A stretch of DNA of 64,000 nt, from the IMG/VR virus record IMGVR_UViG_3300033066_001296, positions 15,846-79,845 of that record. One strand, 5' to 3'. How positions within the stretch are numbered: the first letter of the stretch is position 1; each line of letters begins with the position of its first letter. Under the pieces are notes generated by a model. It saw only the letters and a list, made by a program, of their open reading frames with translations. It was not told the DNA's origin and did no database searches. This DNA is from a virus (lineage: Duplodnaviria > Caudoviricetes). Shown one piece after another: positions 8,598 through 54,890 of the stretch. Made by a program: the position numbers and the translations under genes.

Positions 8598-10552
8598 CTC
8601 TGTCCAACGCGACGATAAATGTTCCCCATGTAATCTTCAACCGAACCATCCTCACGATTTACGATCGCATCCGCATGTGTTTGAAGATTTTCTCCAGTTT
8701 CTTCAGGGCGTGAAGGCATCGCAGACCTTTCAGGTTGTACAGCCTGTTGAACTTGCTGTGTAGCGTGCCGTCCTCGCGCGTGATCCACGGGGTGATTCCT
8801 CCGAGCCTCTGCTTGACGTTCGCTGGCATTCTGATCCCAACGTGGTGTGAAGTAGTTCTGGATGTCTGCCTTGACCTCAATGGAATCATTGCTCCAATCA
8901 AAGTCAACGCTACCTACTCTGAAGTAGCGTAGCACGCCCATGATGTTACCCCGTGCAGATGCAACGATTGCTCTGCATAGGTTCTCATCGGAGAGGTAGC
9001 GCTGCACCTGTCGCACCGCTTCGGAGAATGGAAGTTGTGCAGTCTGGTTTAGTGTAGAAACAATTGGACTCTGAACCTGAAGACGAGAGGCATCCACAAG
9101 GAGCTCAAGCGCATCTCCAACTCTCAGTCGAAGAAGGTCTGGATCAGCATTCGTTCCTCCGAACGAAGTAAGCTTGGTGGTCGAGATCGAGCCCTTCATC
9201 TCGAGCCTTCCGAGCTGTTCGTAGAAGCTTCTTGCGATGTCTGTAAGTTGCTGAATGTCTCGAACCCCGTGAACGGGAATGTTCAAAATCTCCTGAGACT
9301 CTTCACCACCCACTGCATTGCGTGGGTCTTTGGCACCCTCTCGGCGTGCTTCTCGCACCGTACGCGGAGGCCACGAAGCCTCAAGGAGCTGCTCCCTTCC
9401 CCGCCGTCCTGTGCCTGCGGAGGGGTCCACAGAGATGCATCGGACGGTCTTTGGCTTGTTGTGCCCCGCATACTTTCGTCCAAGGTCCATGGACTCAATG
9501 TCGCGACCCCAAACCATACGTCGAACATTCCAAGTTTCGGTTCCATTCGTTCTACTTTCGTTAGGACGGAAAGGTGTTTCGATGTTCCTTAGACGATCAA
9601 ATAGGGCATATCCTGGTCTGATGATCAGTTTACGACCGACAAACGTTGGAATGCCCCCTACAAGATACACGTAACGTGTTATCGCATCCCAAAAGTTCAT
9701 GTTTGAGTGTGCACCACCTCCACCACCACCTTGACCATTTGCACCTCTGCGATGTCGAGGGATGTGAGATCCTTTTCCGGGCGAAGGAACAATCCCATTT
9801 GGCCACTCCGCGGGATAGATCACCACAGTTGGTCTGAGTTCAACCGGAAGTCTACGAATCGTGTCGTGCTCGTAGAGGAGCTGCTCGACCACCTTGTTGA
9901 TCGGAACGTCCGTGATCAGACGATCCAGAATGTGAGTTCTGCGACGACGTGCGGGCGTGTTCGAGGTGTGAGCTGCACCAGTTTGCGGGGTTGTTGAGTG
10001 CGCAGTTCTCTGAGGACGTGCGGTATCTCGCTCCGAAACGAGCGGAGAGTCCAAGAGGATTCCACGAAGGTCTCTGCCCTCAAGATGCACCTCAGAAGCA
10101 CCTTCGTTGTGCTTCACGGACCAGTCATCCACCGGACCAATCATGACAAGGAATTCCTCGTTCATGGTCCCATCAGCCTTACGAGTCTGGAGAATGCTCC
10201 GACGAACACCGGGCCTTACTTCTCGGTTCATCCCATCCGCAAAGTCTGCTGCGGAGACTGTGCCGATGTAGATCTCGGCAGTTGCAGCGACTACGGTACG
10301 AGGATCAATAGGCAATTCGCGGTAGTCAAACACCAGCTTGTAGGTCGCCGCTTGGGTGTGACCCTGTAGCTGGATGTTGCACTTCACTGGAACCCTGTTG
10401 AGGATGAATGCTCCCGAGTTCTGCGTGCGAACGAGGTTCTGGTTCTCAAAGCCATGAGCCTCTTCTGCACGGATGTACAGTTTAGGATCGATCGTGAGCT
10501 GAAGGTTCACAATACAAGACGGATACTGAACTAGCTCTGAATTTCCTGGCAT
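8591..10552 (-). CDS. Baseplate hub protein (gp27/gp44-like)
   Basis: ~650 aa between LysM protein and spike; GPVDDWSV...VHLEGRDLRGILLD and LRLRVGDALEL...YFRVGSVDFDW...IEVKAD motifs; start at 10552 or 10567. Confidence 0.7.
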   Translation of the reverse strand: MPGNSELVQYPSCIVNLQLTIDPKLYIRAEEAHGFENQNLVRTQNSGAFILNRVPVKCNIQLQGHTQAATYKLVFDYRELPIDPRTVVAATAEIYIGTVSAADFADGMNREVRPGVRRSILQTRKADGTMNEEFLVMIGPVDDWSVKHNEGASEVHLEGRDLRGILLDSPLVSERDTARPQRTAHSTTPQTGAAHTSNTPARRRRTHILDRLITDVPINKVVEQLLYEHDTIRRLPVELRPTVVIYPAEWPNGIVPSPGKGSHIPRHRRGANGQGGGGGGAHSNMNFWDAITRYVYLVGGIPTFVGRKLIIRPGYALFDRLRNIETPFRPNESRTNGTETWNVRRMVWGRDIESMDLGRKYAGHNKPKTVRCISVDPSAGTGRRGREQLLEASWPPRTVREARREGAKDPRNAVGGEESQEILNIPVHGVRDIQQLTDIARSFYEQLGRLEMKGSISTTKLTSFGGTNADPDLLRLRVGDALELLVDASRLQVQSPIVSTLNQTAQLPFSEAVRQVQRYLSDENLCRAIVASARGNIMGVLRYFRVGSVDFDWSNDSIEVKADIQNYFTPRWDQNASERQAEARRNHPVDHARGRHATQQVQQAVQPERSAMPSRPEETGENLQTHADAIVNREDGSVEDYMGNIYRRVGQRW

Positions 10553-14868: not shown

Positions 14869-15306
14869 TCACGTTAGGACAGCAGAGGCTTCCGAGCAAG
14901 CTGCTTCGAGCTTGACCGTCACGTAGTCGGTGCGGTTCCCGGCGTTGATTGGGAATGCACCAAACTCCACATCACGAAATGTGACACGAGCCTGCTGTCC
15001 GTTTGGATAGGTGATCGTACACTTGATGTTGATCCTCGTTCCAGGGGTGCGACGACGTGCCTTGTCCACCGCGCTCTGGATCAGCGAGAAGATCTTGTTG
15101 TTGTTGGTGTGGAGTTCCATGTCGAGCTTGATGCCCTTGAACACGGAATCCTTACGGTTCGTGGTTTCCCCAATGTAACCCTCGTCCTTGATCTCAAGTT
15201 CGTACGTAAACGAAAAGCTTCGTACGCAGTTAACTTCGTCAAGAATGTCCGAGTCCTGAATGATGATTACTGACACATTCTGACCCAAAACCCTTTGACT
15301 TGCCAT
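14869..15306 (-). CDS. Tail tube protein
   Basis: 145 aa, beta-rich (SFSFTYELEI...GIKLDMEL...VTVKLEAACS), between sheath and chaperones. Confidence 0.8.
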   Translation of the reverse strand: MASQRVLGQNVSVIIIQDSDILDEVNCVRSFSFTYELEIKDEGYIGETTNRKDSVFKGIKLDMELHTNNNKIFSLIQSAVDKARRRTPGTRINIKCTITYPNGQQARVTFRDVEFGAFPINAGNRTDYVTVKLEAACSEASAVLT

Positions 15307-15349
15307 TTCCTCTTGTCAAATCCTCTCTGTTTAGCTACCTTCTGACCAT

Positions 15350-16000
15350 ATGCAACGACTTGATTTGACAGGTCAAAAGTTCGGTAGACTTACGGTGGTA
15401 GAGTACATCAAAAAGGATGAGAAAGGGAAGATCTGGTGGAAGTGTATTTGCGACTGCGGAGAGTCAATCGAAACCTACACGCTGCTCCTAAGATCGAAAA
15501 AACAACAATCGTGCGGATGCTTGAGGAAAGAGACATCATCCAAGCACTGCGAAGGTATGACCAAGCACGGGCACTACAAAGGCAACAAACCCACGCCAGA
15601 GTGGTCTGCTTGGGCGGCGCTCAGAGCTCGTTGCTACGTTAAAACACACAAACAGTACAAGAACTACGGGGGCAGGGGAATCGCTGTTTGCGAACGCTGG
15701 CACACCTTCGATAACTTTCTGGAAGACATGGGGAAGAGGCCAGACAAAGGCTACTCAATCGATCGAATCGATAACTCGAAAGGATACGAGCCGGGAAACT
15801 GTCGGTGGGCAACTACCACCGAGCAAAACAACAATATGCGAACAAATAGACGAGTTTCTTACAACGGCGAGGAACTTACACTGGCGCAGTGGTGTAAAAG
15901 ACTTCACATATCGAGGGGTCTGTTGAAAGCCCCTTTGCAACGACTTGGTTCTTATGAGAAAGCTTTGGAGGAGATTATTGGCAAGCTCAAAGAACTTTGA
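15350..16000 (+). CDS. HNH homing endonuclease, antisense to the tail operon
   Basis: DLTGQKFGRLTV...WKCICDCG...SCGC...YGGRGIAVCERW..F..F.EDMG.RP...SIDRIDNSKGYEPGNCRWAT..EQ.NN phage HNH family. Confidence 0.92.
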   Translation: MQRLDLTGQKFGRLTVVEYIKKDEKGKIWWKCICDCGESIETYTLLLRSKKQQSCGCLRKETSSKHCEGMTKHGHYKGNKPTPEWSAWAALRARCYVKTHKQYKNYGGRGIAVCERWHTFDNFLEDMGKRPDKGYSIDRIDNSKGYEPGNCRWATTTEQNNNMRTNRRVSYNGEELTLAQWCKRLHISRGLLKAPLQRLGSYEKALEEIIGKLKEL

Positions 16001-16079
16001 GAAGCCATCTATATCTCCTAGAGAAGAAGCGCCCTATTGTATCGCACCGGGCCAGTGCGCTTGTGGTCCGCAGGCGAGA

Positions 16080-18113
16080 TCAGACCACAGAGGTTGTTAC
16101 GGTGTCTGGGCCAATCTCCGTAGCGAGGACCAGATCATCGAGAGTTGAAAGCATTCTCACCTTTGTCTTCACAACATGCACCCCTCTTGCGGTGAGTGCT
16201 GGTGTGTTGAGCGTCTTGTCGTCCAGCGAATAGCTATCAATACGCTGCGCTTCAGGGTTGTTCTCCGAGAGAAGGTCGCCAAGGAAGGCATCAAACTCGG
16301 AGAGGATTGCATCCTTGAGAGACTCACGAAGCAGGCGCTTGTTGAGCTGGTTGCCCCGTGCTGCAAGCGTATCCTGAATGAAGTCTGCCATTCTCCGACG
16401 ATTGATGTTTGTCTCGCCTGCCGTTAGAGAGGTAGTTACACCCGATTGGATGATCGGTCCCACAACCCGATCCATGCGAAGTGCGGCCACGCCGTACTGC
16501 TTGAACAGCTTATAGGTTTCCATGTCCAGAGACGGTGTGCCCCTCTGGTAGCCAAGGATCGGAGAGAAGATCTGCGGAACTGGATCCGATGCTTGGCCTG
16601 GGTTCAATTCAGGTTGCAAGTTGGACAACAGACAGGCAAGCCAAGTATCCATCCCCACATCGAGAATTCCATCATCTGTAGTCGTACCATCTGGACAGGC
16701 AATCGAGTAGCCAACTGCTTCTGGGATGTAGGTACGGCAACCGGGCCAGGAGTACCAGACACGCTCGTTGCGCACCGCGCCACCTGTACCTCCGACACCC
16801 GGAGCCGCAGATGCAAGCACCGCAGCGATCGTAAGCGTAGACAGGGTTGGAGACACAAGCGCACAGCGGCTCATCCCACGCGACGTGGACGTGAGTACAT
16901 GATTGTACAAGTACGATTGGATCGTCGCATCCTTGCGTGCGCAAGTGACAATCGAGATCTCGTTCGTCGGATAGTCATCGTTCAGGAGTGCGTTGATGGC
17001 ATCCAAGTAACGATTCCGCATGTCGGATGTTGTGGATGGGTTCGCTGCATGAAGGTCCGCATCGTAGGTCAGAGCACCCGAAGGGTGCGTGTAACCTGCG
17101 AGACCCGAAAGCTCGCTCCAATACGTTCCCGAAGCTGCGGTAGGCGCAGGAGAAGGTGTCAGTGCAGTGCCAGCGCTGATCGTGGCCACGGTTGGACGTG
17201 CCAGAACCGTGTAACCACCCGCCTCAGAGAACTGGTTCAGAGGGCCAGAGTCCGCGTCCGATCCTGCGTGAACACGGTAGGCAAGTGCAGAGCCAGCTTC
17301 CCAATCCGATGTGGTGAAGTTCGCGCCATTCTGCTTCTGGACTGTGATTTCCAGTCCGTTCGCATTGACCGACACGACACGGAGAGTGCCCGCTCCTGCG
17401 CACAGAAGGTTCTGCGAGAGTGCCGCCGCGTTCAAAGAGCCCGGAACGACAGCATCGCCCTCGACCACACCATCCGAAACAAACGAACCTGCGGCTCTTG
17501 TGATGGTTACGGTTGCGGCTGGGAGACCAGAAGTAACCGTCGTACCGTCCACACCCGAACTCTTTGGCGAGCTTCCGGTGAAGTCCACGCTCTGCGCGAG
17601 CTTCAGATAGTTCGAGCTGTTGTAGAACTGAGTACCCGCCCAAACGCGCGCAGGGGTCACTGCAACAATTGGAATTACAGAAGTTGCGGAAGTGTTGGTA
17701 GGGAGTTGACGCCAGATGCGAATGCCGTACTGAGTGCCCGATCCCTGACGAACAAGGTCCACTGGAACCACCACAAGCCTCGAGAAACGCTTGTTGCGAA
17801 GTTCCACGAAGAGGTTACCCATCTCCGCACCGAACTTGCCGAGCGAGCGATCAAATGGGCCGATCTTATCGAGAAGATCTGAACCACCGTACACTTCCTG
17901 GGGTCTGAACTTCGAGATGACCTCTCCCGAGGTGTTCACTGCGCAGCAGTAACTCATGTCGGAACATTCACCGACGACTGCCACAACACCATAACTTGCC
18001 CCGCGAATTGGACCCGGAGAGCGTTGATCCACAATGACAACGCCCTCAATTGCGGTGATCTCTTCGACACCGGGAAAGTATGTGTACTTACGAATAAAAC
18101 CAGCACCAGCCAT
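16080..18113 (-). CDS. Tail sheath protein
   Basis: 677 aa; N-terminal YFPGVEEITAIEGVVIVD, C-terminal INRRRMADFIQDTL...FLGDLL...IDSYSL sheath motifs. Confidence 0.92.
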   Translation of the reverse strand: MAGAGFIRKYTYFPGVEEITAIEGVVIVDQRSPGPIRGASYGVVAVVGECSDMSYCCAVNTSGEVISKFRPQEVYGGSDLLDKIGPFDRSLGKFGAEMGNLFVELRNKRFSRLVVVPVDLVRQGSGTQYGIRIWRQLPTNTSATSVIPIVAVTPARVWAGTQFYNSSNYLKLAQSVDFTGSSPKSSGVDGTTVTSGLPAATVTITRAAGSFVSDGVVEGDAVVPGSLNAAALSQNLLCAGAGTLRVVSVNANGLEITVQKQNGANFTTSDWEAGSALAYRVHAGSDADSGPLNQFSEAGGYTVLARPTVATISAGTALTPSPAPTAASGTYWSELSGLAGYTHPSGALTYDADLHAANPSTTSDMRNRYLDAINALLNDDYPTNEISIVTCARKDATIQSYLYNHVLTSTSRGMSRCALVSPTLSTLTIAAVLASAAPGVGGTGGAVRNERVWYSWPGCRTYIPEAVGYSIACPDGTTTDDGILDVGMDTWLACLLSNLQPELNPGQASDPVPQIFSPILGYQRGTPSLDMETYKLFKQYGVAALRMDRVVGPIIQSGVTTSLTAGETNINRRRMADFIQDTLAARGNQLNKRLLRESLKDAILSEFDAFLGDLLSENNPEAQRIDSYSLDDKTLNTPALTARGVHVVKTKVRMLSTLDDLVLATEIGPDTVTTSVV

Positions 18114-36189: not shown

Positions 36190-37037
36190 GCATCTTGAAG
36201 CCCGGACAGCAAAGACCCTCGATCAACCTTACGAATCGGAAGTCCTTTGTAGAGAACTCTGTGCCAGCCCAAGTACCTGTAACGGAGAACTTCGAGTCTC
36301 CCAATCCTGGTCTTGCAATCCAGACTATCGCAAAGCTTCCCAACCAGCGAGGGAAGGGCGGAAGACCTACCAAGGCCCAGAGTCGCGATGCAGGCTACAT
36401 GGAAGGTGCTCAGAAGGCCATCGAGGAGATTCGAGAAGCAAACCCTCCGCTTCTCGCTGCCGCACCTCACCGTTCTGGAAAGATGGAGATTCAGAGATCC
36501 TGGGAAAAGGCATACGACGCCAAGGAGAAGTCTCTCGAGCGGCAGGAAGCCGAAGCCATCCTTGCAGCGCGGAGCGAAAGGCTTGCCGCACTTGAAGAGG
36601 AAACCGCCATTCGCAGAGCCAACCGAAAGGTTGGCGTCGCCGCAGGGCTTGCTGCATTCACGATGGTGCGAACGCTTGGAGATGTGGCAGAGCGACTCGA
36701 CAAAAAGGTGCGAGAATCGAAGGACATGAGCTTCTCGGAGCTTCGGGGTGCAATCAACACACTTTCGGGCTCTGTATCCAAGATGCAGTCCGCAATGGAG
36801 ACTGTGGCACGCCTCGAACGCACGATTACGCGGCGACCGCTTGATGAAGAGGGTGTAAATTCTGTTAGCGAAGACGATCTTTCAAACCTCTCTGTTGAAG
36901 ACGCAGAGAAGATCCTCGAGAACATTCTCAAAACGACCTATCACACGGCAAAGAGCGCAGGAATCAAAATTTACGATGGTACTGCGGAGGTGGTAGAGAC
37001 TTCAGAAGAGGTGAGCAATGGCGAAGTTGAATCCTGA
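36186..37037 (+). CDS. Probable terminase small subunit
   Basis: 283 aa helical protein overlapping the TerL start; GKGGRPTK basic motif and coiled coil. Confidence 0.55.
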   Translation: MSILKPGQQRPSINLTNRKSFVENSVPAQVPVTENFESPNPGLAIQTIAKLPNQRGKGGRPTKAQSRDAGYMEGAQKAIEEIREANPPLLAAAPHRSGKMEIQRSWEKAYDAKEKSLERQEAEAILAARSERLAALEEETAIRRANRKVGVAAGLAAFTMVRTLGDVAERLDKKVRESKDMSFSELRGAINTLSGSVSKMQSAMETVARLERTITRRPLDEEGVNSVSEDDLSNLSVEDAEKILENILKTTYHTAKSAGIKIYDGTAEVVETSEEVSNGEVES

Positions 37038-40000
37038 TCTCATCAAGTTCATCGCAAAAGAAGATCCAGAGCACGCTGTACAACTTGAACGAGACTACAA
37101 GCGTGCCATGATCATTCTTGCGCGTAATGATCCCGCCATGTTTTGTCAGTATGTCCTTCGTAATGGCAAAACAGGAGGTGCGATCTACCTCACACCCGAG
37201 CATGTGGCTTTGCACAAGCTGATTCAGCCGTGCTCTAGAACTGCGGTTTGGACTTATCCTGAGTTTGGCAAAGGTCTAGACCTAAATACTGACATTCCGA
37301 CACCATCAGGATGGGTAAAGATGTCAGATATTCAAGTTGGGTCATCTGTATTCGGATCTGACGGCATAGAGGCTCGTGTCATTTGGGTAAGCCCTATCCA
37401 AAACATCCGAGTTTTTGATGTAGAGTTTGACGATGGTGTAGTTATTCGTTGTGACGAGTCTCATTTGTGGTCCGCATACTCATGCAAAGATCGTCACAAG
37501 AATCCACAACCGCTCAAACTCGTGAGCACGTTGGAAATGTCCAACTCCGTCAAGCATGGAGATAGGAACCAGTGGGGAATTCCAATCGCACCTCCGGTCC
37601 AATATCCATCCAAGCAATTGCCGGTGCATCCATATCTTTTGGGTGCTTGGCTAGGAGATGGTGACAGTAAAGGACTAACTTTGACTTGTCACCAAGAAGA
37701 CATTGCGATTGTGGATCGGTGTTGCCAGCTATCCGGTGAGTTGGTCAAAAAGGTTCCAGACAAGCGTAAGCCTCATGTACTGCGCTGTAAGATTGGTGGT
37801 TCTGAACTTCAGAAAAAGTTCAGGCAGCTTGGGGTTCTTGGAAAAGCAGGTTGCAAATTCATTCCTGCCGAATACCTCACAGCTTCCGAGGACCAAAGGA
37901 GGGAGTTGTTGGCGGGGCTGCTAGACACTGATGGTACTGTCTACACGAGATCTAACGATGTGTCGTTTGTAGAAGTATCTTTTTGTGTTGAACGTCTGGC
38001 ACTCGACACGCTTGAGCTTGTCAGGTCCCTGGGCTTCAAGGCCAGGCTCCGTTCTGAACCCTCTAAACTCTACGGCAGGGTTGTAGGTGCACGACATAGG
38101 ATTTTCTTCACAGCCAGGGAACCAGTCTTCAAACTGGAACGCAAGCTCAACAAGCAGAAACTCCAAGCTGCTCACGGGAGCAAAGCAAACGCGCGATACG
38201 TTGTAAGCGTTACGGAAGTTCCCTCTGTTCCGACCAAATGCATCAAGGTTGATTCGCCTGATCACACCTTTCTTGCGGGGCGCAGCTACACAGTCACGCA
38301 CAACTGTGAAGAGTCTGGAAATTCTGTACTCCTTCGGGATGGCACTTGGAGAAAGATCGAAGATCTGGCAGATGGGAACTTTCACGAACTTCTAACGTGG
38401 GATCTACACCAACCCGCACTCAAACCAGTTACAGGACGTGTAACTGCGAACGGGAAACGTCCCGTGGTTCGTTTCCACTTGGCAAACGGGCACAAGATCG
38501 GCGTTACACAGGAGCATCCTCTTTGCGCTGCGGACGATGTTCAGTGGCGGCAAGCTCAGAATTTGAAGGTGGGGGACCGAATCGTCTGCCTCCGTCATCT
38601 TGAGCTCGAGTCCACAACACCCGAAAGTGACGTACCCTCCGAAGAAGCAGAGATTCTTGGATATCTCCTAGCGGGCGAGGTTCGAGGTCGGAGAGTCTTT
38701 GTTCGCAAGCTCTGGAAAAGCGAGCATTGGAGCTCTCGCCGTGCTCGGATGTTCAAGAAAGCCATGTGGGAGCTTGTGGACCACGATCGGGATTGGTTGG
38801 AAGTGGTGCTCTCCAAGAGCGCTGATTCCACCGATATGCACCCTTACGTGTTCATAAATCAGCTCGCCACAATTCAAGACAAGTATCCCGTGGATCTGAG
38901 CCCAGAAATCTGGAGGCTCCACAAGACGGGACTTCAGAGGCTCCTTACTGCATTCTTTGTAACGGCATTTTGTGATCCTCGGAGGAAGATCTGGACAAGG
39001 GGTCGCACAGTAGGCGTCTCTGACAAGCGCTACCCCAAGGGCTTCGTTCACAAGTGTTACGAAACTGGTGACATGATCCGCAGGCTTGCACTGCGATTGG
39101 GGGTGTCCATAATCGTAAAGCAGGACTATTACTTTACGAAAGAGTGGCTGATCAGCGTACCTAATCCCCAAGTAAAGATCTTTTACCCATCGAAGGTAGA
39201 ATACCCAGACCAGATTCCGTTGATGGAGGCTGTTGAGATTGTAAAGATCGAACATGCAGAGGCGGAAACCTGGGCAGTTGAGATTCTGGATAGCGAGCAC
39301 AGCTACATTTCTGGGGGTGTGCTCTCTCACAACACCACGCAGATGATCGGGCATGTTCTCTGGCGTCTTGGGAAAGACCCCAACATCTCGATTGGTATCT
39401 TTCAGAACTCCAAAGGCTCCGCGATCAACACCCTCAAGACGATCAAGGAGTACATTGAGGATTCTGTAGAGCTCCACGACGTGTTCCCGAACTTGGTTCC
39501 GGGTACAACATGGAGCGAGCATCAGATCACGGTTCCACGAAGCACCTTCCGACGTGACCCTTCCGTCAAGGCGGTGTCTCTCGGATCGAAGTTCATGGGG
39601 GACCGCTTTGATGGTCTGATCCTTGACGACGTGGACAACCCTGATACCGTGCTCACAGAGGAATCGAGAAAGAAGACAGAGGATTGGGTTCGTCGAAGTG
39701 CTCTCTCCCGTCTTACAGAGGAAGCCTGGGCAATCGCCATCGGCAACATCTGGCACGAAGGCGATCTCATGCACCAGCTTGTTAAATCGGGCTGGAATGC
39801 AGTAAAGCACCCTGTCCTTCGCCCTGATGGAACACCTCTCGATCCAGACCGCTTTACGTTGGAGCGCATCTACCACATTCGCGATGTGGATCAGAAGCCC
39901 ATCGAGTTTGAGCGCCTTTACATGCTCAAAGAGCGGAGGGATGGCGATCAGAGATTCCGTATGGAATGGATTGCCAACGCCTTGAAGAAGGGCAATCAGA

Positions 40001-41814
40001 ATATCCTCGTGAAGTGCGAGGAGCACATTCCAAAGATCCCATCGGGATGCCGTGCGATTACGGGCGTGGACCTTGGTGTGAAAAAGAAGGCATCTTCGGA
40101 CCCTACAGTGATCACTACGATTCTCGAAGCCCCAGCCGGGAAGGATCGCTACGAATATCAGATTCTCAACATCAAGAAGGGTCGTTGGGATGCTGATGAG
40201 ATCATGAAGAACATTGCGGAGCAGCAACGCTGGTTCGGATCTCAAGTATTCGTGGAGTCGAACGGCTGTTTTGTTCCGGGCACTCGGGTGCTTACACCCT
40301 CCGGGTATGTGCCTATCGAGAAGGTTGAACCTGGAACTCTGGTGTGGACTCATATGGGACGTTGGAGAAAGGTCATCAATCGATACGACGGCACTGCGCG
40401 GCATGTGACTCCCGTAAAGGCAACCGGAAGTCTTTCAGTAACATGCACACCTAACCACGCATTTTATGTGCGGCAGGCTGGTAGAACATCTGGGCGTGGC
40501 GGGGGCCATCACAGACCGCTGGACCCAAAGGGCTGGTGCTCTATTGGGTTCCCCGACGTGCCCCTGTATCTGAATTTGGCTCTGCCAGTCTGGCCCGCCA
40601 AATCACCGGAGCTTCACTTGGAGCAGACCAAAAAGCTTCCGGCTCGTGCAATTCCTGTTAACGAAAAGTTGGCGCTTGTTCTCGGTCTTTTCATGGCAGA
40701 AGGGCACACAACGACGGGTCAAGTGTTTTGGACGTTGAACAAAAACGAGGGTTATCTTGCAGACCTGATCGACGAGGTGTTGAGTCCTCTTGGCTTCAAA
40801 TCCAGCCGCCGCATTTACAACAACACACTTCGTGTCGTAATTTCTCAGGTGCAACTTGCAAAGACCCTCAAATGTGGAAAGGGTCCGAACAAATGCCTGC
40901 CATTGGATTGGATGGGGTGGCCTCTGGATCTGCGTATTGCTCTTGTCAGAGGTTGGCTACTCGGAGATGGCTGTGCAGGTAAGAACGGCAACAGAAAGAA
41001 GTTGCCGTCTATTAGTCTTTCTGGTGTGACGATCTCTAGGGATTGGGCTTTGTTTGTGAGGTCAACCCTTCATCAAGCTGGAATCACTGTTGCGCTTAGG
41101 GAGTCCACACGTAAACAATCTGTGATCGAAGGGCGCATAGTTAATAGAAATCCGTCGTTCCTCTTGAATCTTACACAAGATGGTTCTGAGCAACTTCGCA
41201 AGCACATGACGCATTCTGTCGAAGCTGAGCGTTGGGGAGCAAAGTGGTGGGATCAGTCTCTTCCAAATGCAAGGCAGCATGGATGTCCGACTGTAATCCA
41301 AGCTGATGGTGTTTGGGCTCGAATGAAAGATCATGATCTAGACCCAAAGAAGACGTACATTCCATACGAAAACGGGCCTGTTCATAATCTAGTTGTTGAG
41401 GAAGATGAGTCCTTCACTGTTGAGGATTTTGTTGTTCACAATGCCCAGGACTTTCTTGTTCAGCTCATCAACTTGTCGGGTTCCAACTTCCGCGTTACAC
41501 CCTTCAACACAGGCCGTAACAAGTACGATCCAATGTACGGTATCGAGTCTCTTGCGGGGGAAATGGCGGTTGGTTACAACGAGGGCTCTGAGAATGAGTT
41601 CGGCCTCTGGTATTTCCCTTCGATCGATGGGACGCTCGAGAGCGCAGACGATGAGATCCAGGAGCTCGTTCAAGAGATGCTCGCGTACACGCCGGGGGAT
41701 CACACGGGCGACCTTCTCATGTCGCTCTGGATTGCCCGTGAAGGCGCAAGAAACTCGCGGATTCAAGTGAAAGAATCCAAGTTTCAGTGGGGTCGCCTTC
41801 GTCTTCGCCACTGA
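37018..41814 (+). CDS. terL: Terminase large subunit with three inteins (519 aa after removal)
   Basis: Reconstituted Walker A PEFGK|TT, Walker B LILDD, nuclease GVDLG...SD and GDHTGDLLMSLWIA; three Hint/LAGLIDADG insertions. Confidence 0.93.
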   Translation: MAKLNPDLIKFIAKEDPEHAVQLERDYKRAMIILARNDPAMFCQYVLRNGKTGGAIYLTPEHVALHKLIQPCSRTAVWTYPEFGKGLDLNTDIPTPSGWVKMSDIQVGSSVFGSDGIEARVIWVSPIQNIRVFDVEFDDGVVIRCDESHLWSAYSCKDRHKNPQPLKLVSTLEMSNSVKHGDRNQWGIPIAPPVQYPSKQLPVHPYLLGAWLGDGDSKGLTLTCHQEDIAIVDRCCQLSGELVKKVPDKRKPHVLRCKIGGSELQKKFRQLGVLGKAGCKFIPAEYLTASEDQRRELLAGLLDTDGTVYTRSNDVSFVEVSFCVERLALDTLELVRSLGFKARLRSEPSKLYGRVVGARHRIFFTAREPVFKLERKLNKQKLQAAHGSKANARYVVSVTEVPSVPTKCIKVDSPDHTFLAGRSYTVTHNCEESGNSVLLRDGTWRKIEDLADGNFHELLTWDLHQPALKPVTGRVTANGKRPVVRFHLANGHKIGVTQEHPLCAADDVQWRQAQNLKVGDRIVCLRHLELESTTPESDVPSEEAEILGYLLAGEVRGRRVFVRKLWKSEHWSSRRARMFKKAMWELVDHDRDWLEVVLSKSADSTDMHPYVFINQLATIQDKYPVDLSPEIWRLHKTGLQRLLTAFFVTAFCDPRRKIWTRGRTVGVSDKRYPKGFVHKCYETGDMIRRLALRLGVSIIVKQDYYFTKEWLISVPNPQVKIFYPSKVEYPDQIPLMEAVEIVKIEHAEAETWAVEILDSEHSYISGGVLSHNTTQMIGHVLWRLGKDPNISIGIFQNSKGSAINTLKTIKEYIEDSVELHDVFPNLVPGTTWSEHQITVPRSTFRRDPSVKAVSLGSKFMGDRFDGLILDDVDNPDTVLTEESRKKTEDWVRRSALSRLTEEAWAIAIGNIWHEGDLMHQLVKSGWNAVKHPVLRPDGTPLDPDRFTLERIYHIRDVDQKPIEFERLYMLKERRDGDQRFRMEWIANALKKGNQNILVKCEEHIPKIPSGCRAITGVDLGVKKKASSDPTVITTILEAPAGKDRYEYQILNIKKGRWDADEIMKNIAEQQRWFGSQVFVESNGCFVPGTRVLTPSGYVPIEKVEPGTLVWTHMGRWRKVINRYDGTARHVTPVKATGSLSVTCTPNHAFYVRQAGRTSGRGGGHHRPLDPKGWCSIGFPDVPLYLNLALPVWPAKSPELHLEQTKKLPARAIPVNEKLALVLGLFMAEGHTTTGQVFWTLNKNEGYLADLIDEVLSPLGFKSSRRIYNNTLRVVISQVQLAKTLKCGKGPNKCLPLDWMGWPLDLRIALVRGWLLGDGCAGKNGNRKKLPSISLSGVTISRDWALFVRSTLHQAGITVALRESTRKQSVIEGRIVNRNPSFLLNLTQDGSEQLRKHMTHSVEAERWGAKWWDQSLPNARQHGCPTVIQADGVWARMKDHDLDPKKTYIPYENGPVHNLVVEEDESFTVEDFVVHNAQDFLVQLINLSGSNFRVTPFNTGRNKYDPMYGIESLAGEMAVGYNEGSENEFGLWYFPSIDGTLESADDEIQELVQEMLAYTPGDHTGDLLMSLWIAREGARNSRIQVKESKFQWGRLRLRH
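37273..38304 (+). mobile_element. Intein 1 (344 aa, class 3 WCT type, Gly1) with LAGLIDADG endonuclease
   Basis: GLDLNTDIPTPSGW start; block B CDESHLW, block F TKCIKV, block G VTHN; YLLGAWLGDG and LLAGLLDTDG motifs. Confidence 0.9.
38305..39333 (+). mobile_element. Intein 2 (343 aa, class 1, Cys1) with degenerate LAGLIDADG region
   Basis: CEESGNSVLLRDG start, TQEHP block B, ends GGVLSHN before Thr; EILGYLLAGE remnant. Confidence 0.88.
40267..41442 (+). mobile_element. Intein 3 (392 aa, Cys1) with LAGLIDADG endonuclease, followed by Ala
   Basis: CFVPGTRVLTPSG start, CTPNHAF block B, LGLFMAEG and VRGWLLGDG motifs, ends DFVVHN then GCC (Ala). Confidence 0.88.
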
Positions 41815-41877: not shown

Positions 41878-44190
41878 ATGTCTCGTTCCAAGGCTTCGGC
41901 CTCAAGGTCTTCTATTTTTCAGATTCAGGATGCAGATCGTTTCCTTCTCGACGACGCTTTCATCGAGAAATACAAGGGACAAGAGCCTAAATGGGGTCCA
42001 GTTGGTAAGATTGCATACGTAAGAACCTATGCAAGAGAGCTTCGCAACGAGGAGCTTGTCCAATTCTTCATGCGCGACATGAAGATGAGCCGAAAAGATG
42101 CCAGAGCAGCAGCTCGCAAGGCGGGTGTGCGCCGTGAAGAGTTCTGGCAGACGGCTCGCCGTGTCGTCGAGTTTGCTTGGACTGTGTTTCAGCGACAGGC
42201 TCGCATGGCGCATCACTCCTGGGATGCTGCGGAGGCTCAAGTAAAGGCGCAGGAGATGTTTGAGCGTCTTTGGGCCTTCAAATGGCTCCCACCCGGCAGA
42301 GGTATGCAGTTCGCAGGAACCCCTGTGGTGGAACTCAAAGGGGGTGCAGTGCTGAACAATTGCGGATTCGTGAGCACAAGACACCTATCCGCAGACCTTG
42401 CATCTCCTTTCTGCCGTTTCATGGACTTCTTGATGCTTGGTGTGGGCATGGGTGCCGATGTTCGAGGTGCTGGGTCTGTCACAATCAAAGCCCCCATCCA
42501 AGGCAATGACCCTCCTTATCGCGTCGAAGACAGTCGCGAGGGCTGGGTAAACGCACTTCGGGTGAAGCTCGACACCTACTTTCACGGACTCATGGAAGTA
42601 GAGTTTGATTTCTCAAACATTCGAGCAGAGGGCAAGCCTCTGAAGACTCTGGGGGGCACTTCGAGCGGTTCCGCACCTCTCGAAAGGCTCTTGAATCGTG
42701 TGGATGAGATCCTCAAGCCACTAATCGACCGTACGATTACTGTGTCTGCGATTGCAGACATCTTCAACGAGATTGGCGTGTGCGTTGTCTCTGGTAACAT
42801 TCGCAGATCTGCCGAGATCATGATCGGAGAGAACGGAGATGACGCATTTGCAGCATTGAAAGACCCATCTGATCTCAATAATGCGTTCGCAGAGCGCAGT
42901 CTTATTGAGGATCAGATCCCCGAGGTTTCCAGACTGCATCAAAAGATCGCAAGACTGCGTGAGAAGCAAGCAGACCTGTCTGCTGCCAACGCCAAGTTCC
43001 TCTATCTCCAAGACAAAATCGATCGGGCCAACGCAAGGCTCCACAAGATTGCCAGCTCGAACGAAGCCTGGTTGGCTGTAACGGACAAGATCAACAAGCA
43101 CCCCCTCAATACACACCGCTGGGCATCGAATAACACCCAACTCTTCTCGACCAAGGACAGCTTTGAAGAGGTCGCAGCAAGAATCATATCCAATGGAGAG
43201 CCCGGTATTGCCTTCATGGACAGCATTCGCGCATACGGGAGAATGGGCGACTTTGTTCACTATCCTCGAAGTGCAGATCTGAAAGACCCTCGTGTTGAGG
43301 GCTTCAACCCTTGCTCTGAGCAGTCTCTCGAAGATGGTGAGCTGTGTTGCCTCGGGGAGCTCAACCCCAACGCGCACGAAACCCTCGAAGACTTCCTCAT
43401 GACCATCAAGTTTGCGTATATGTATTGCAAGGCGGTCACGCTGGTGCCTACCCATGACCCTGAAACCAATCAGATCATGACGAGAAACCGCCGTATCGGG
43501 CTCTCCATGATGGGCATCTGGAAGATGTACGAACGACTTGGAATGCAGGAGTGCATTCGTTGGTGGGATCGCGGCTACGAAGAGGTGCGCAAGTGGGACA
43601 GGACCTACTCTTCGTGGCTTGGTGTGAACGAATCCATCAAAGTTACCTCCGTGAAACCCGGAGGCACAATCCCTCTTCTCGTTGGGGAAGAGGGCGGCAT
43701 GAAGATTCCTACTGCCAAGTACTACTTCCGCACCATTCGCATGGATCACAAGTCGCCGCTCGTAAAGGCTTGCAAGGATGCGGGTTATCGTGTGGAGAAG
43801 GACCGTGTTTCACCAAGAACGGCGGTTGTGTACTTCCCAATCCACGATGAGTCCACAAAGCGCACCTCGGAGCAGGTTACGCTTTGGGAGCAGATGGGGT
43901 TGCTTGCAGCTCTGCAAGCCCATTGGTCCGACAACATGGTGTCCAACACCATCACGTTCCGTCCTCACGAGGCAGATCAGATCGCGTCTGCGGTGGGAAT
44001 GTTCGCAAACCGAATCAAATCGGTGAGCTTTCTACCCCTGATGACGCACGGATACGCGCAAGCCCCCTACATCCCAATCGAAGAGTGGGAGTACGAGCTT
44101 GCAGTTGGAAAGTTGGGGAATCTAGATCTGTCAGGCGGGGGTCACGAAGTAGACGAGAAGTACTGCACCGGAGATGTCTGTATGCGCTGA
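41878..44190 (+). CDS. nrdJ: Class II (adenosylcobalamin-dependent, monomeric type) ribonucleotide reductase
   Basis: WLPPGRG, LNNC, GVGMG, VVSGNIRRSAEI, GFNPCSEQ, CCLGE, SVKPGGT motifs. Confidence 0.93.
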   Translation: MSRSKASASRSSIFQIQDADRFLLDDAFIEKYKGQEPKWGPVGKIAYVRTYARELRNEELVQFFMRDMKMSRKDARAAARKAGVRREEFWQTARRVVEFAWTVFQRQARMAHHSWDAAEAQVKAQEMFERLWAFKWLPPGRGMQFAGTPVVELKGGAVLNNCGFVSTRHLSADLASPFCRFMDFLMLGVGMGADVRGAGSVTIKAPIQGNDPPYRVEDSREGWVNALRVKLDTYFHGLMEVEFDFSNIRAEGKPLKTLGGTSSGSAPLERLLNRVDEILKPLIDRTITVSAIADIFNEIGVCVVSGNIRRSAEIMIGENGDDAFAALKDPSDLNNAFAERSLIEDQIPEVSRLHQKIARLREKQADLSAANAKFLYLQDKIDRANARLHKIASSNEAWLAVTDKINKHPLNTHRWASNNTQLFSTKDSFEEVAARIISNGEPGIAFMDSIRAYGRMGDFVHYPRSADLKDPRVEGFNPCSEQSLEDGELCCLGELNPNAHETLEDFLMTIKFAYMYCKAVTLVPTHDPETNQIMTRNRRIGLSMMGIWKMYERLGMQECIRWWDRGYEEVRKWDRTYSSWLGVNESIKVTSVKPGGTIPLLVGEEGGMKIPTAKYYFRTIRMDHKSPLVKACKDAGYRVEKDRVSPRTAVVYFPIHDESTKRTSEQVTLWEQMGLLAALQAHWSDNMVSNTITFRPHEADQIASAVGMFANRIKSVSFLPLMTHGYAQAPYIPIEEWEYELAVGKLGNLDLSGGGHEVDEKYCTGDVCMR

Positions 44191-53756: not shown

Positions 53757-53831
53757 GCCACGCTCGTATAAAAGTAATTACTCGGCCCTTGTAATGCCGA
53801 TATCAGAGTGCAAGTCTCTGGCGTGGCTCCA
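53757..53831 (+). tRNA. tRNA-Thr(UGU)
   Basis: GCCACGC/GCGTGGC acceptor, loop CT-TGT-AA, T-arm CAGAG-TGCAAGT-CTCTG, encoded CCA. Confidence 0.85.
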
Positions 53832-53848
53832 TTTCTGCTCGTATCTAA

Positions 53849-53884
53849 GCCCCTATAGCTCAATGGACAGAGCGCGCGGCTTCT
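53849..53884 (+). pseudogene. 5' half of tRNA-Arg(UCU), interrupted after the anticodon
   Basis: GCCCCTA-TA-GCTC-AATGGACA-GAGC-G-CGCGG-CT-TCT; matching acceptor strand TAGGGGT only at 54571..54577. Confidence 0.7.
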
Positions 53885-54405
53885 GGTTTCGGTGGGATTT
53901 TTCTCGCCGGAATCTGCTCCAGCGTAAGTTTACCATTATCAAACTCCCAATGATGATTTGGGCACAAAACAAGAATGTTGGATGGTGCATTCACAATCCC
54001 AAGTTGCGTGTTGGCATCAAAAGATGAAACTGATTTGATGTGGGCAAGCTCTATGTGGAGTGAATAGCCGCAAACTTGGCAAGGTAGCTTCGTTAGATCT
54101 CTGTTCCAAGTTCTACAAAACATCCGAACTCTTACATTCTTCCAAGACGGATGACGCCCTTTTATGGATATGCCATCGGAAAACTCTTTGATGGTCTTGC
54201 CCTTGTTTATGCTCTTACCATCGCTAATGATACAAGCTCTGTGTCGCTTACCTCTAACAATATCACCGCAAAATGAACAAACCTTCCATACCTTACTTGT
54301 TCGTTTTCGCTTCACATAGAGTTTGTTGGTGATAATTGCGCTGCATCTTCTGCTGCAATATTTTACGTTTGCGATATTGCTACAGTCTGGATTTCCACAT
54401 TTCAT
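53860..54405 (-). CDS. HNH endonuclease with N-terminal Zn-binding motifs, antisense within tRNA cluster
   Basis: CGNPDC...YCSRRC; PCQVCGYSLHIELAHIKSV...NILVLCPNHHWEFD; AT-rich; start MKCG at 54405. Confidence 0.88.
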   Translation of the reverse strand: MKCGNPDCSNIANVKYCSRRCSAIITNKLYVKRKRTSKVWKVCSFCGDIVRGKRHRACIISDGKSINKGKTIKEFSDGISIKGRHPSWKNVRVRMFCRTWNRDLTKLPCQVCGYSLHIELAHIKSVSSFDANTQLGIVNAPSNILVLCPNHHWEFDNGKLTLEQIPARKIPPKPEAARSVH

Positions 54406-54481
54406 CTTGGCGTATCCTCTCTGCCTTCTAAGCAGTAGAAAAGGTAATCGGAACATGAGGGTTCGAGTCCCTTCGCCAAGG
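54406..54481 (+). tRNA. D-arm-less tRNA-Arg(UCU)-like element E4
   Basis: CTTGGCG/CGCCAAG acceptor, CTGC-CTTCTAA-GCAG anticodon arm, T-arm GAGGG-TTCGAGT-CCCTT; no D-arm. Confidence 0.55.
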
Positions 54482-54553
54482 CTAAACCACCATAAAACAA
54501 GAATCAAGTCAGCGCCATTATCAAAAGTTCGATTTCGGCTATTCAAGTCTTGT

Positions 54554-54578
54554 GAAGGTTCGAGTCCTTCTAGGGGTG
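54554..54578 (+). pseudogene. Orphan tRNA 3' part (T-arm plus acceptor strand)
   Basis: GAAGG-TTCGAGT-CCTTC-TAGGGGT-G, complementary to GCCCCTA at 53849. Confidence 0.65.
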
Positions 54579-54584
54579 CTATCA

Positions 54585-54659
54585 GTGCCGTTTGCTGATG
54601 CTGGTTTCAGCAATCGCCCTATAAGCGATAGGACATGGGTTCGATTCCCATACGGCACA
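54585..54659 (+). tRNA. tRNA-Ile(UAU), atypical C33
   Basis: GTGCCGT/ACGGCAC acceptor, GCTG/CAGC D-stem, ATCGC-CCTATAA-GCGAT anticodon arm, ATGGG-TTCGATT-CCCAT. Confidence 0.75.
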
Positions 54660-54778
54660 CAGCGGTTGATGTGGTGAGATTTGTTTTCCGTGGAGGGCTG
54701 CTTCTGATTGCTTCTCAGCCCGACGAAGCGGAGCATATCGATGTACCCGACTCTTCACTAGAGTCTAAAACCACATCT

Positions 54779-54850
54779 GCTAGCGTATCTCAATGGTAGA
54801 GAAGCGACCTTTTAAGTCGCGATATGAGGGTTCAACTCCCTCCGCTAGCA
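54779..54850 (+). tRNA. tRNA-Lys(UUU)
   Basis: GCTAGCG/CGCTAGC acceptor, TCTC/GAGA D-stem, GCGAC-CTTTTAA-GTCGC, GAGGG-TTCAACT-CCCTC. Confidence 0.92.
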
Positions 54851-54890
54851 CTATCGATCAATGGAGATCGGTAAAAGAGGAGTGTCTGCA

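Follow-up and report, generated by a model that had tools for sequence, protein, structure and literature searches.

Intein 3 and described splicing systems

Reviews of protein splicing hold that an intein must be followed by Cys, Ser, or Thr at the first position of the C-extein (+1), and regard splicing without such a nucleophile as a poorly efficient peculiarity of bacterial intein-like (BIL) domains, which are non-mobile (PMC4031507; PMC7664689). In the canonical pathway it is the second step that needs this residue (PMC4031507), and type A BIL domains without a +1 nucleophile splice by aminolysis after Asn cyclization (PMC4031507, citing Dassa 2004 and Aranko 2013). Inteins are also known from the terminase large subunits (TerL) of phages, some of them with active homing endonucleases, and multi-intein TerL genes have been described (PMC5050341, PMC7156551). 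Here, we describe the third of three inteins (intein 3) in a phage TerL gene, located on 64,000 nucleotides of a Caudoviricetes virus (IMG/VR record IMGVR_UViG_3300033066_001296, positions 15,846 to 79,845); this whole stretch is the window referred to below. Intein 3 is followed by Ala, and comparison with its relatives places it in a widespread, selected, and still mobile intein family without a +1 nucleophile.

Type A BIL domains such as BIL4 of Clostridium thermocellum (PDB 2lwy) share with intein 3 an N-terminal Cys, a C-terminal His-Asn, a non-nucleophilic +1 residue, and the Hint fold; however, they are only ∼130-150 aa long and have no homing endonuclease, whereas intein 3 has 392 aa with both LAGLIDADG motifs intact. 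BIL domains are typically found within variable stretches of bacterial proteins, many of them secreted, and are not known to be mobile. Intein 3, in contrast, occupies one fixed site in the catalytic motif of an essential phage enzyme, three residues after the catalytic Glu, is present in some near-identical alleles and absent from others, and has its phylogenetic origin among ordinary inteins of that site. As to kinship with BIL domains, a sequence search of the PDB with intein 3 gave nothing significant, the sole Hint chain returned being 2lwy (E 0.51); the Pfam Hint_2 match (34.3 bits, cut-off 28.4) covered the first 45 aa only; and the tree described below places the clade of intein 3 among ordinary same-site inteins.

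Class 1 LAGLIDADG inteins (PI-SceI, 1ef0/1vde; TliVMA and PhoVMA, 7qsu/7qss/7qst; PI-PfuI, 1dq3) share with intein 3 the two-domain fold, Cys1, the TxxH motif, and His-Asn, and like it interrupt a conserved host sequence that is also found uninterrupted; they splice through a block G branched intermediate, though, with Cys, Ser, or Thr at +1 where intein 3 has Ala. Sister inteins at the very same site with Ser or Cys at +1 (P0030, P0032, P0033, P0034, P0036, and P0037, and the mini-inteins P0058 and P0065) have the same VE.N.-.QDF site and architecture at 35-40% identity; in these, however, the host Ala is replaced by Ser or Cys, so that the canonical route is usable, and they have Leu for Trp27 and A-V-H-N for V/I-V-H-N. 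The mycobacteriophage terminase inteins (Kelley et al. 2016, PMC5050341) are also in phage TerL, but all seven of their sites are in the ATPase domain and have a canonical +1 residue, and the nuclease-domain TerL intein of cyanophage Mic1 (PMC7156551) is drawn with Cys at the extein boundary. In the literature covered, which did not extend to subscription journals, we found no terminase intein, and no intein with an endonuclease, described as naturally having a non-nucleophilic residue at +1. By fold, architecture, site behavior, and phylogeny, intein 3 is thus of class 1 type, and its chemistry would be BIL-like.

Junctions, family, and selection

The terL gene encodes a 1598-aa product that matches the PHROG terminase large subunit families (PHROG 38, E 2e-47) and contains three Hint/LAGLIDADG inserts. 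Its features, in window coordinates, are as follows:

37018..41814, + strand: terminase large subunit gene with three inteins; intact open reading frame (ORF), 1598-aa precursor with ∼525 aa of extein
39334..40266, + strand: extein between inteins 2 and 3 (aa 773-1083), remainder of the ATPase and start of the RNase H-like nuclease; homologues 53-61% identical
from 40063, + strand: GVDLG (Asp) in the extein between inteins 2 and 3; Asp invariant in 26 homologues
40255-40257, + strand: catalytic Glu1080 (GAG) at the end of a strand; invariant in 26 homologues
40267..41442, + strand: intein 3, 392 aa, Cys1084 to Asn1475; Hint splicing domain with inserted LAGLIDADG homing endonuclease
40267..40269, + strand: Cys1 (TGT), N-terminal nucleophile of intein 3; in 42/42 full-length Ala/Gly +1 relatives
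40447..40458, + strand: block B T-P-N-H, intein positions 61-64; Thr/Ser in 42/42, His in 42/42
40699..40701, + strand: catalytic Glu of the first LAGLIDADG motif (LGLFMAEG); Glu in 41/42
40966..40968, + strand: catalytic Asp of the second LAGLIDADG motif (GWLLGDG); Asp in 41/42
41380..41442, + strand: blocks F and G (VHNLVVEEDESFTVEDFVVHN), ending in His-Asn (VVHN); His391 and Asn392 each in 42/42
41440-41442, + strand: terminal Asn392 of intein 3 (AAT), read from the sequence
41443..41445, + strand: +1 residue Ala1476 (GCC), a non-nucleophile; relatives use GCC, GCA, GCT, and GCG
41443..41811, + strand: C-extein, 123 aa, helix AQDFLVQLIN followed by the remaining nuclease sequence with HTGD; HTGD Asp invariant, GDHTGD starting at 41695

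The junctions of intein 3 read FVESNG-CFVPGTRVLT ... EDFVVHN-AQDFLVQL. An earlier note on this DNA, covering 40255-41460 (from the Glu1080 codon to six codons past the junction), had described VESNG-[C...VVHN]-AQDFL with a 392-aa insert and GCC at +1, exactly as we read from the ORF and its codons. An AlphaFold model of intein 3 with its flanks (pLDDT 88.4, pTM 0.87) had its best PDB matches in PI-SceI (1ef0/1vde) and TliVMA (7qsu), followed by PhoVMA and PI-PfuI (Foldseek, E 1e-17 to 1e-10), and Pfam LAGLIDADG_3 matched the intein at 34.4 bits (cut-off 22.5). Intein 3 has the Cys1, block B Thr-x-x-His, C-terminal His-Asn, Hint fold, and conserved in-frame site with intein-free alleles of a class 1 intein; what it lacks is the Cys, Ser, or Thr of that class at +1. 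A shifted intein boundary was ruled out, as the insert is exactly 392 aa between the G and A of VESNG-AQDF and blocks F and G end in a standard His-Asn; a nucleophile moved to -1, or to anywhere from +2 to +12, was ruled out as well, since no Ser, Cys, or Thr is conserved at those positions.

The insertion site lies in the catalytic core of the nuclease. A homologue lacking an intein at the site was modeled (pLDDT 84.5); the model has the TerL fold and matches 8dgc, 5oee, 3cpe, 6z6d, 5m1o, and 3c6a; a PDB sequence search with TerL aligned only the ATPase part, to T7 gp19. Three acidic nuclease residues do not vary among 26 aligned homologues: Asp in GVDLG, Glu in VESNG, and Asp in HTGD. Because strand 314-318 of the model ends at this Glu and the next helix (AQDF) starts at 321, intein 3 is predicted to occupy the three-residue turn adjoining the catalytic Glu, with one conserved acidic residue in the C-extein. 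The earlier note was therefore right that the last nuclease Asp (GDHTGD, 41695) lies downstream of the intein, and that canonical splicing, which needs a +1 Cys, Ser, or Thr (PMC4031507), meets an Ala here.

All 12 junction-covering members of the 90%-identity cluster of the protein have HN-A (these include full-length variants, 1 to 18 residues different from the TerL of the window, from separate assemblies), as do all five members of the next cluster, which is 63% identical, and a second viral contig that encodes the same 515 aa with synonymous differences retains GCC. The +1 codon is GCC in a 65%-identical copy and GCT in a mini-intein relative, and six further viral contigs have GCA, GCT, GCG, and GCC, such that all four Ala codons are in use. 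Eleven homologues without an insert at the site (53-61% identity) read VESNG-AQDFL(I/V)QL, one of them with Gly, and 43 intein-free alleles share the form VE(S/N)N(G/A)-(A/G/S)QDF, with Ala in 40, Gly in two, and Ser in one. Since the intein-free alleles carry Ala at the position, the alignments indicate that Ala is the native extein residue at +1, and the suggestion that ESNGAQ is a natural terminase motif is borne out by homologues reading ESNG-AQDF. The sole uninterrupted allele with Ser at the site (VENNG-SQEFIRQF) belongs to another phage (P0084); a Ser +1 intein, since lost by exact excision, may have left this Ser behind.

Relatives were collected by a profile-free search of 1.84 billion representative proteins and then by a word-based search. 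Fifty-nine inteins at the exact site were placed on a tree, of which 44 have Ala at +1 (Gly in one case) and the other 15 Ser or Cys; the site thus holds at least 44 diverged Ala/Gly +1 inteins, down to ∼40% identity, with the junction form ENNS-CFP...VHN-AQD in P0018 and L011. The Ala/Gly inteins form one block beside the Ser/Cys inteins (SH-aLRT 87-94), and nested inside that block are two Ser +1 groups (SH-aLRT 97-100), including one Ser intein that is 70% identical to an Ala neighbor and 39% identical to a basal Ser intein. At its simplest, the tree calls for a single loss of the nucleophile and two later returns to Ser. Inteins at other insertion sites served as a control: the ∼65 in the same match list carry Cys, Ser, or Thr at +1 without exception. 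The relatives had been singled out in the earlier note as the place where a Ser, Thr, or Cys might be found, and the answer was mixed: intein-free alleles and most intein-bearing ones have Ala, and a minority of the latter have Ser or Cys. The site also holds mini-inteins, followed either by Ala (P0071, 140 aa) or by Ser (P0058 and P0065, ∼135 aa). Residues specific to the Ala/Gly clade are Trp27 (Leu in the sisters), Ala71, Ala105, and Val/Ile for Ala three residues before the end; these may be adaptations or mere lineage markers.

The family of intein 3 is known only from metagenomes, because no close relative was recovered from GenBank phages by tblastn, which found only distant inteins (∼25% identity) in mycobacteriophage genes other than terL and no cultured phage, or from prokaryote species genomes, which held no prophage copy and only distant inteins at 22-26% identity.

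The residues on which splicing chemistry depends are conserved throughout the clade. All 42 full-length inteins with Ala or Gly at +1 retain Cys1, the block B His, Asp380, His391, and Asn392; the block B Thr position is Thr or Ser in 42/42, and each LAGLIDADG acidic residue is present in 41/42. Mean pairwise identity within the clade is 55% and 68% in the Hint regions versus 45% in the endonuclease; the Ser/Cys group has the same conservation pattern, with values no higher than those of the Ala/Gly clade. In the comparison with the 65%-identical copy, pS is ∼0.86 and saturated, and pN is 0.18 and 0.12 in the Hint halves versus 0.27 in the endonuclease. This pattern argues for continued selection on self-processing in the Ala/Gly clade. 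In two fragments that bear the intein, the C-extein is 98.2% and 96.4% identical, respectively, to that of intein-free alleles, and such near-identical alleles with and without the intein therefore mark recent gain or loss in at least two terminase lineages. At the intein-free site of the P0004 allele (L084), 42 of 60 bases agree with the exteins of the window gene as joined.

Relatives of intein 3 also occupy a second nuclease-domain site, after HTGD.LMA/S, in P0042, P0045, P0049, P0053, and P0169, the last of which has inteins at three sites. The second-site relatives carry a canonical +1 Cys or Ser (HN-CWF, HN-SWF), and the window phage, where the equivalent site is at about 41704-41724, has Leu there (LMS-LWIAREG). 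On the 93.5-kb contig that bears the terminase with the P0071 mini-intein (L003), two IS605 OrfB/TnpB (Cas12f-like) genes lie near terL, at 9387-10502 and 15009-16205.

Proposed routes of terminase maturation

With Ala at +1, the textbook branched-intermediate route is closed, and maturation therefore calls for unusual chemistry; the native Ala (rarely Gly) of the host follows the intein because the clade has lost its +1 Cys or Ser. By analogy with type A BIL domains, the likeliest route is splicing by thioester formation, Asn cyclization, and aminolysis, and we put the chance that intein 3 follows it at about half. Cys1, aided by the block B Thr and His, would form the N-terminal thioester; Asn392, aided by His391, would then cyclize and free the alpha-amino group of Ala1476; and this amine, held nearby by the folded nuclease domain, would attack the thioester directly. 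The product would be a scar-free VESNG-AQDF terminase with the ligated junction VESNG-AQDFLVQLINLSGSNFR. As the two extein halves belong to the same domain, with a compact RNase H-like fold, they would help to hold the amine beside the thioester. We infer every chemical step of this route because the residues that it needs are exactly those that are invariant in the clade. A native Ala at +1 is reportedly present in the Clostridium thermocellum BIL domain of Dassa's 2004 work. The statement in the earlier note that only cleavage occurs without a +1 nucleophile is too strong, since type A BIL domains still splice by aminolysis.

Several points weigh against ligation by aminolysis. Ordinary inteins engineered to have Ala at +1 generally cleave and do not splice. 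Additionally, the clade-specific Trp27, Ala71, Ala105, and Val/Ile may have no role in amine activation, none being obvious. A ligated product and two non-covalently held fragments are inseparable by computation. Finally, cleavage products outweigh the spliced product in type A BIL domains themselves (PMC4031507; PMC7664689).

The main rival, possible although in our judgment unlikely, is that intein 3 only cleaves, with thioester hydrolysis at the N-junction and Asn cyclization at the C-junction but no ligation. The product would be a two-chain nuclease consisting of aa 1-1083 minus inteins 1 and 2 plus the 123-aa C-fragment, joined by the RNase H-like fold. Such cleavage would need the same conserved residues (Cys1, Thr/His, and His-Asn), so that their invariance suits it equally, and the dominance of cleavage products in BIL domains lacking a +1 nucleophile (PMC4031507, PMC7664689) speaks for it. 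In the homologue model the C-extein contributes one strand and four helices, packed into the nuclease domain, and a stable non-covalent complex is therefore plausible. On the other hand, a break beside the catalytic Glu of an essential enzyme must have been viable at once after the Ser-to-Ala change, and we know of no naturally two-chain terminase nuclease, which counts against this reading. The two nested Ser reversions show, moreover, that a ligated product is acceptable too, and therefore nothing requires the break.

It is improbable that intein 3 is never removed and that its 392 aa simply loop out beside the active site. The earlier note had allowed for a two-chain nuclease or a tolerated insertion, and both are possible, but the second fits poorly because the catalytic splicing residues are invariant. 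The site is a surface turn between strand and helix in the model, and the ends of a Hint domain are close together, both of which would ease toleration; however, an unprocessed insert gives no reason for Cys1, block B Thr/His, Asp380, His391, and Asn392 to be kept in 42/42 at ∼40% identity, nor for the Hint blocks to be more conserved than the endonuclease, and it would abut the invariant catalytic Glu.

Still less credible is other chemistry or recoding, in which the +1 Ala codon is read as Ser or Cys, or the thioester is resolved by a C-extein side chain or a third molecule. Nothing favors this directly beyond the fact that the phage has tRNA genes. Recoding of an Ala codon is excluded because all four Ala codons are used at +1 and none of the three tRNAs is for Ala, their codons being those of Thr, Ile, and Lys, and no other nucleophile is conserved at +2 to +12 or -1.

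Although GCC is one base from TCC or ACC, the one-base error or recent mutation proposed in the earlier note, whether a sequencing or assembly artifact or an inactivating Ser/Thr-to-Ala change in a defective genome, has practically no chance of being right and is refuted by the agreement of independent assemblies, at least 44 diverged relatives with Ala or Gly, the use of four Ala codons, the Ala of intein-free alleles, and, as regards a dead allele, an intact ORF under purifying selection.

Genome context and meaning

The IMG/VR record has 79,845 bases, is ∼90% complete by estimate, and contains the window as a part. Besides terL, the window encodes a tail sheath, tape measure, major head, and portal protein and a ribonucleotide reductase; the gene for the last, at 41878-44190 (PHROG 367, E 7e-113), is directly downstream of terL, an unusual neighbor for a packaging gene. 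Three tRNA genes (Thr-TGT, Ile-TAT, and Lys-TTT) lie at 53757-54851. No second terminase was found in a PHROG scan of ten large ORFs, which was not exhaustive and left the first 15.8 kb of the record unscanned. The Pfam families PF03237, PF17289, and PF03354 had no match in the phage's own genome, but the same families also miss the intein-bearing TerL; the claim of a single-copy TerL rests on the PHROG scan for this reason.

The other two inteins of the precursor lie back to back inside the Walker A motif (37273-39333), with zero extein residues between them, in the layout PEFGK-G...VTHN-C...LSHN-TTQMIGHVLW, and the +1 residue of intein 1 is thus Cys1 of intein 2. Intein 1 starts with Gly and bears class 3 marks, namely a block F Cys, a T-H-N end, and a Trp following the His of block B. 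The same tandem, with Ala1, occurs in a 63%-related terminase, P0166 (GK-ALPLDT...VTHN-CEKRNN...VHN-TNQ), and the class 3 type occurs alone, at GK-T, in P0169 and P0019.

Set against the view of nucleophile-free splicing as a quirk of non-mobile domains, the Ala/Gly inteins are a large, old, and mobile clade in an essential phage enzyme that has done without a +1 nucleophile across deep divergence, with splicing blocks that are unrelaxed. The site shows an intein colonizing a position with a non-nucleophilic native residue, where the sister inteins impose a change from Ala to Ser or Cys on the host and the Ala/Gly clade does not. We propose, tentatively and with somewhat less than even confidence, that the clade could represent a fourth mechanistic class of natural inteins, mobile and endonuclease-bearing, that splice efficiently without a +1 side-chain nucleophile and leave the native Ala or Gly untouched.

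If intein 3 only cleaves, it would act as a maturation protease, a new use for an intein, and the terminase nuclease would be the first that naturally consists of two chains. If it ligates, it would define a new natural splicing class and offer a candidate tool for scar-free, traceless protein ligation; to our knowledge, present ligation tools always leave a Cys, Ser, or Thr. Scar-free splicing, if true, would free the intein to home into any allele without bringing a Cys or Ser codon with it, and such homing may explain why Ala/Gly inteins outnumber their canonical sisters at this site.

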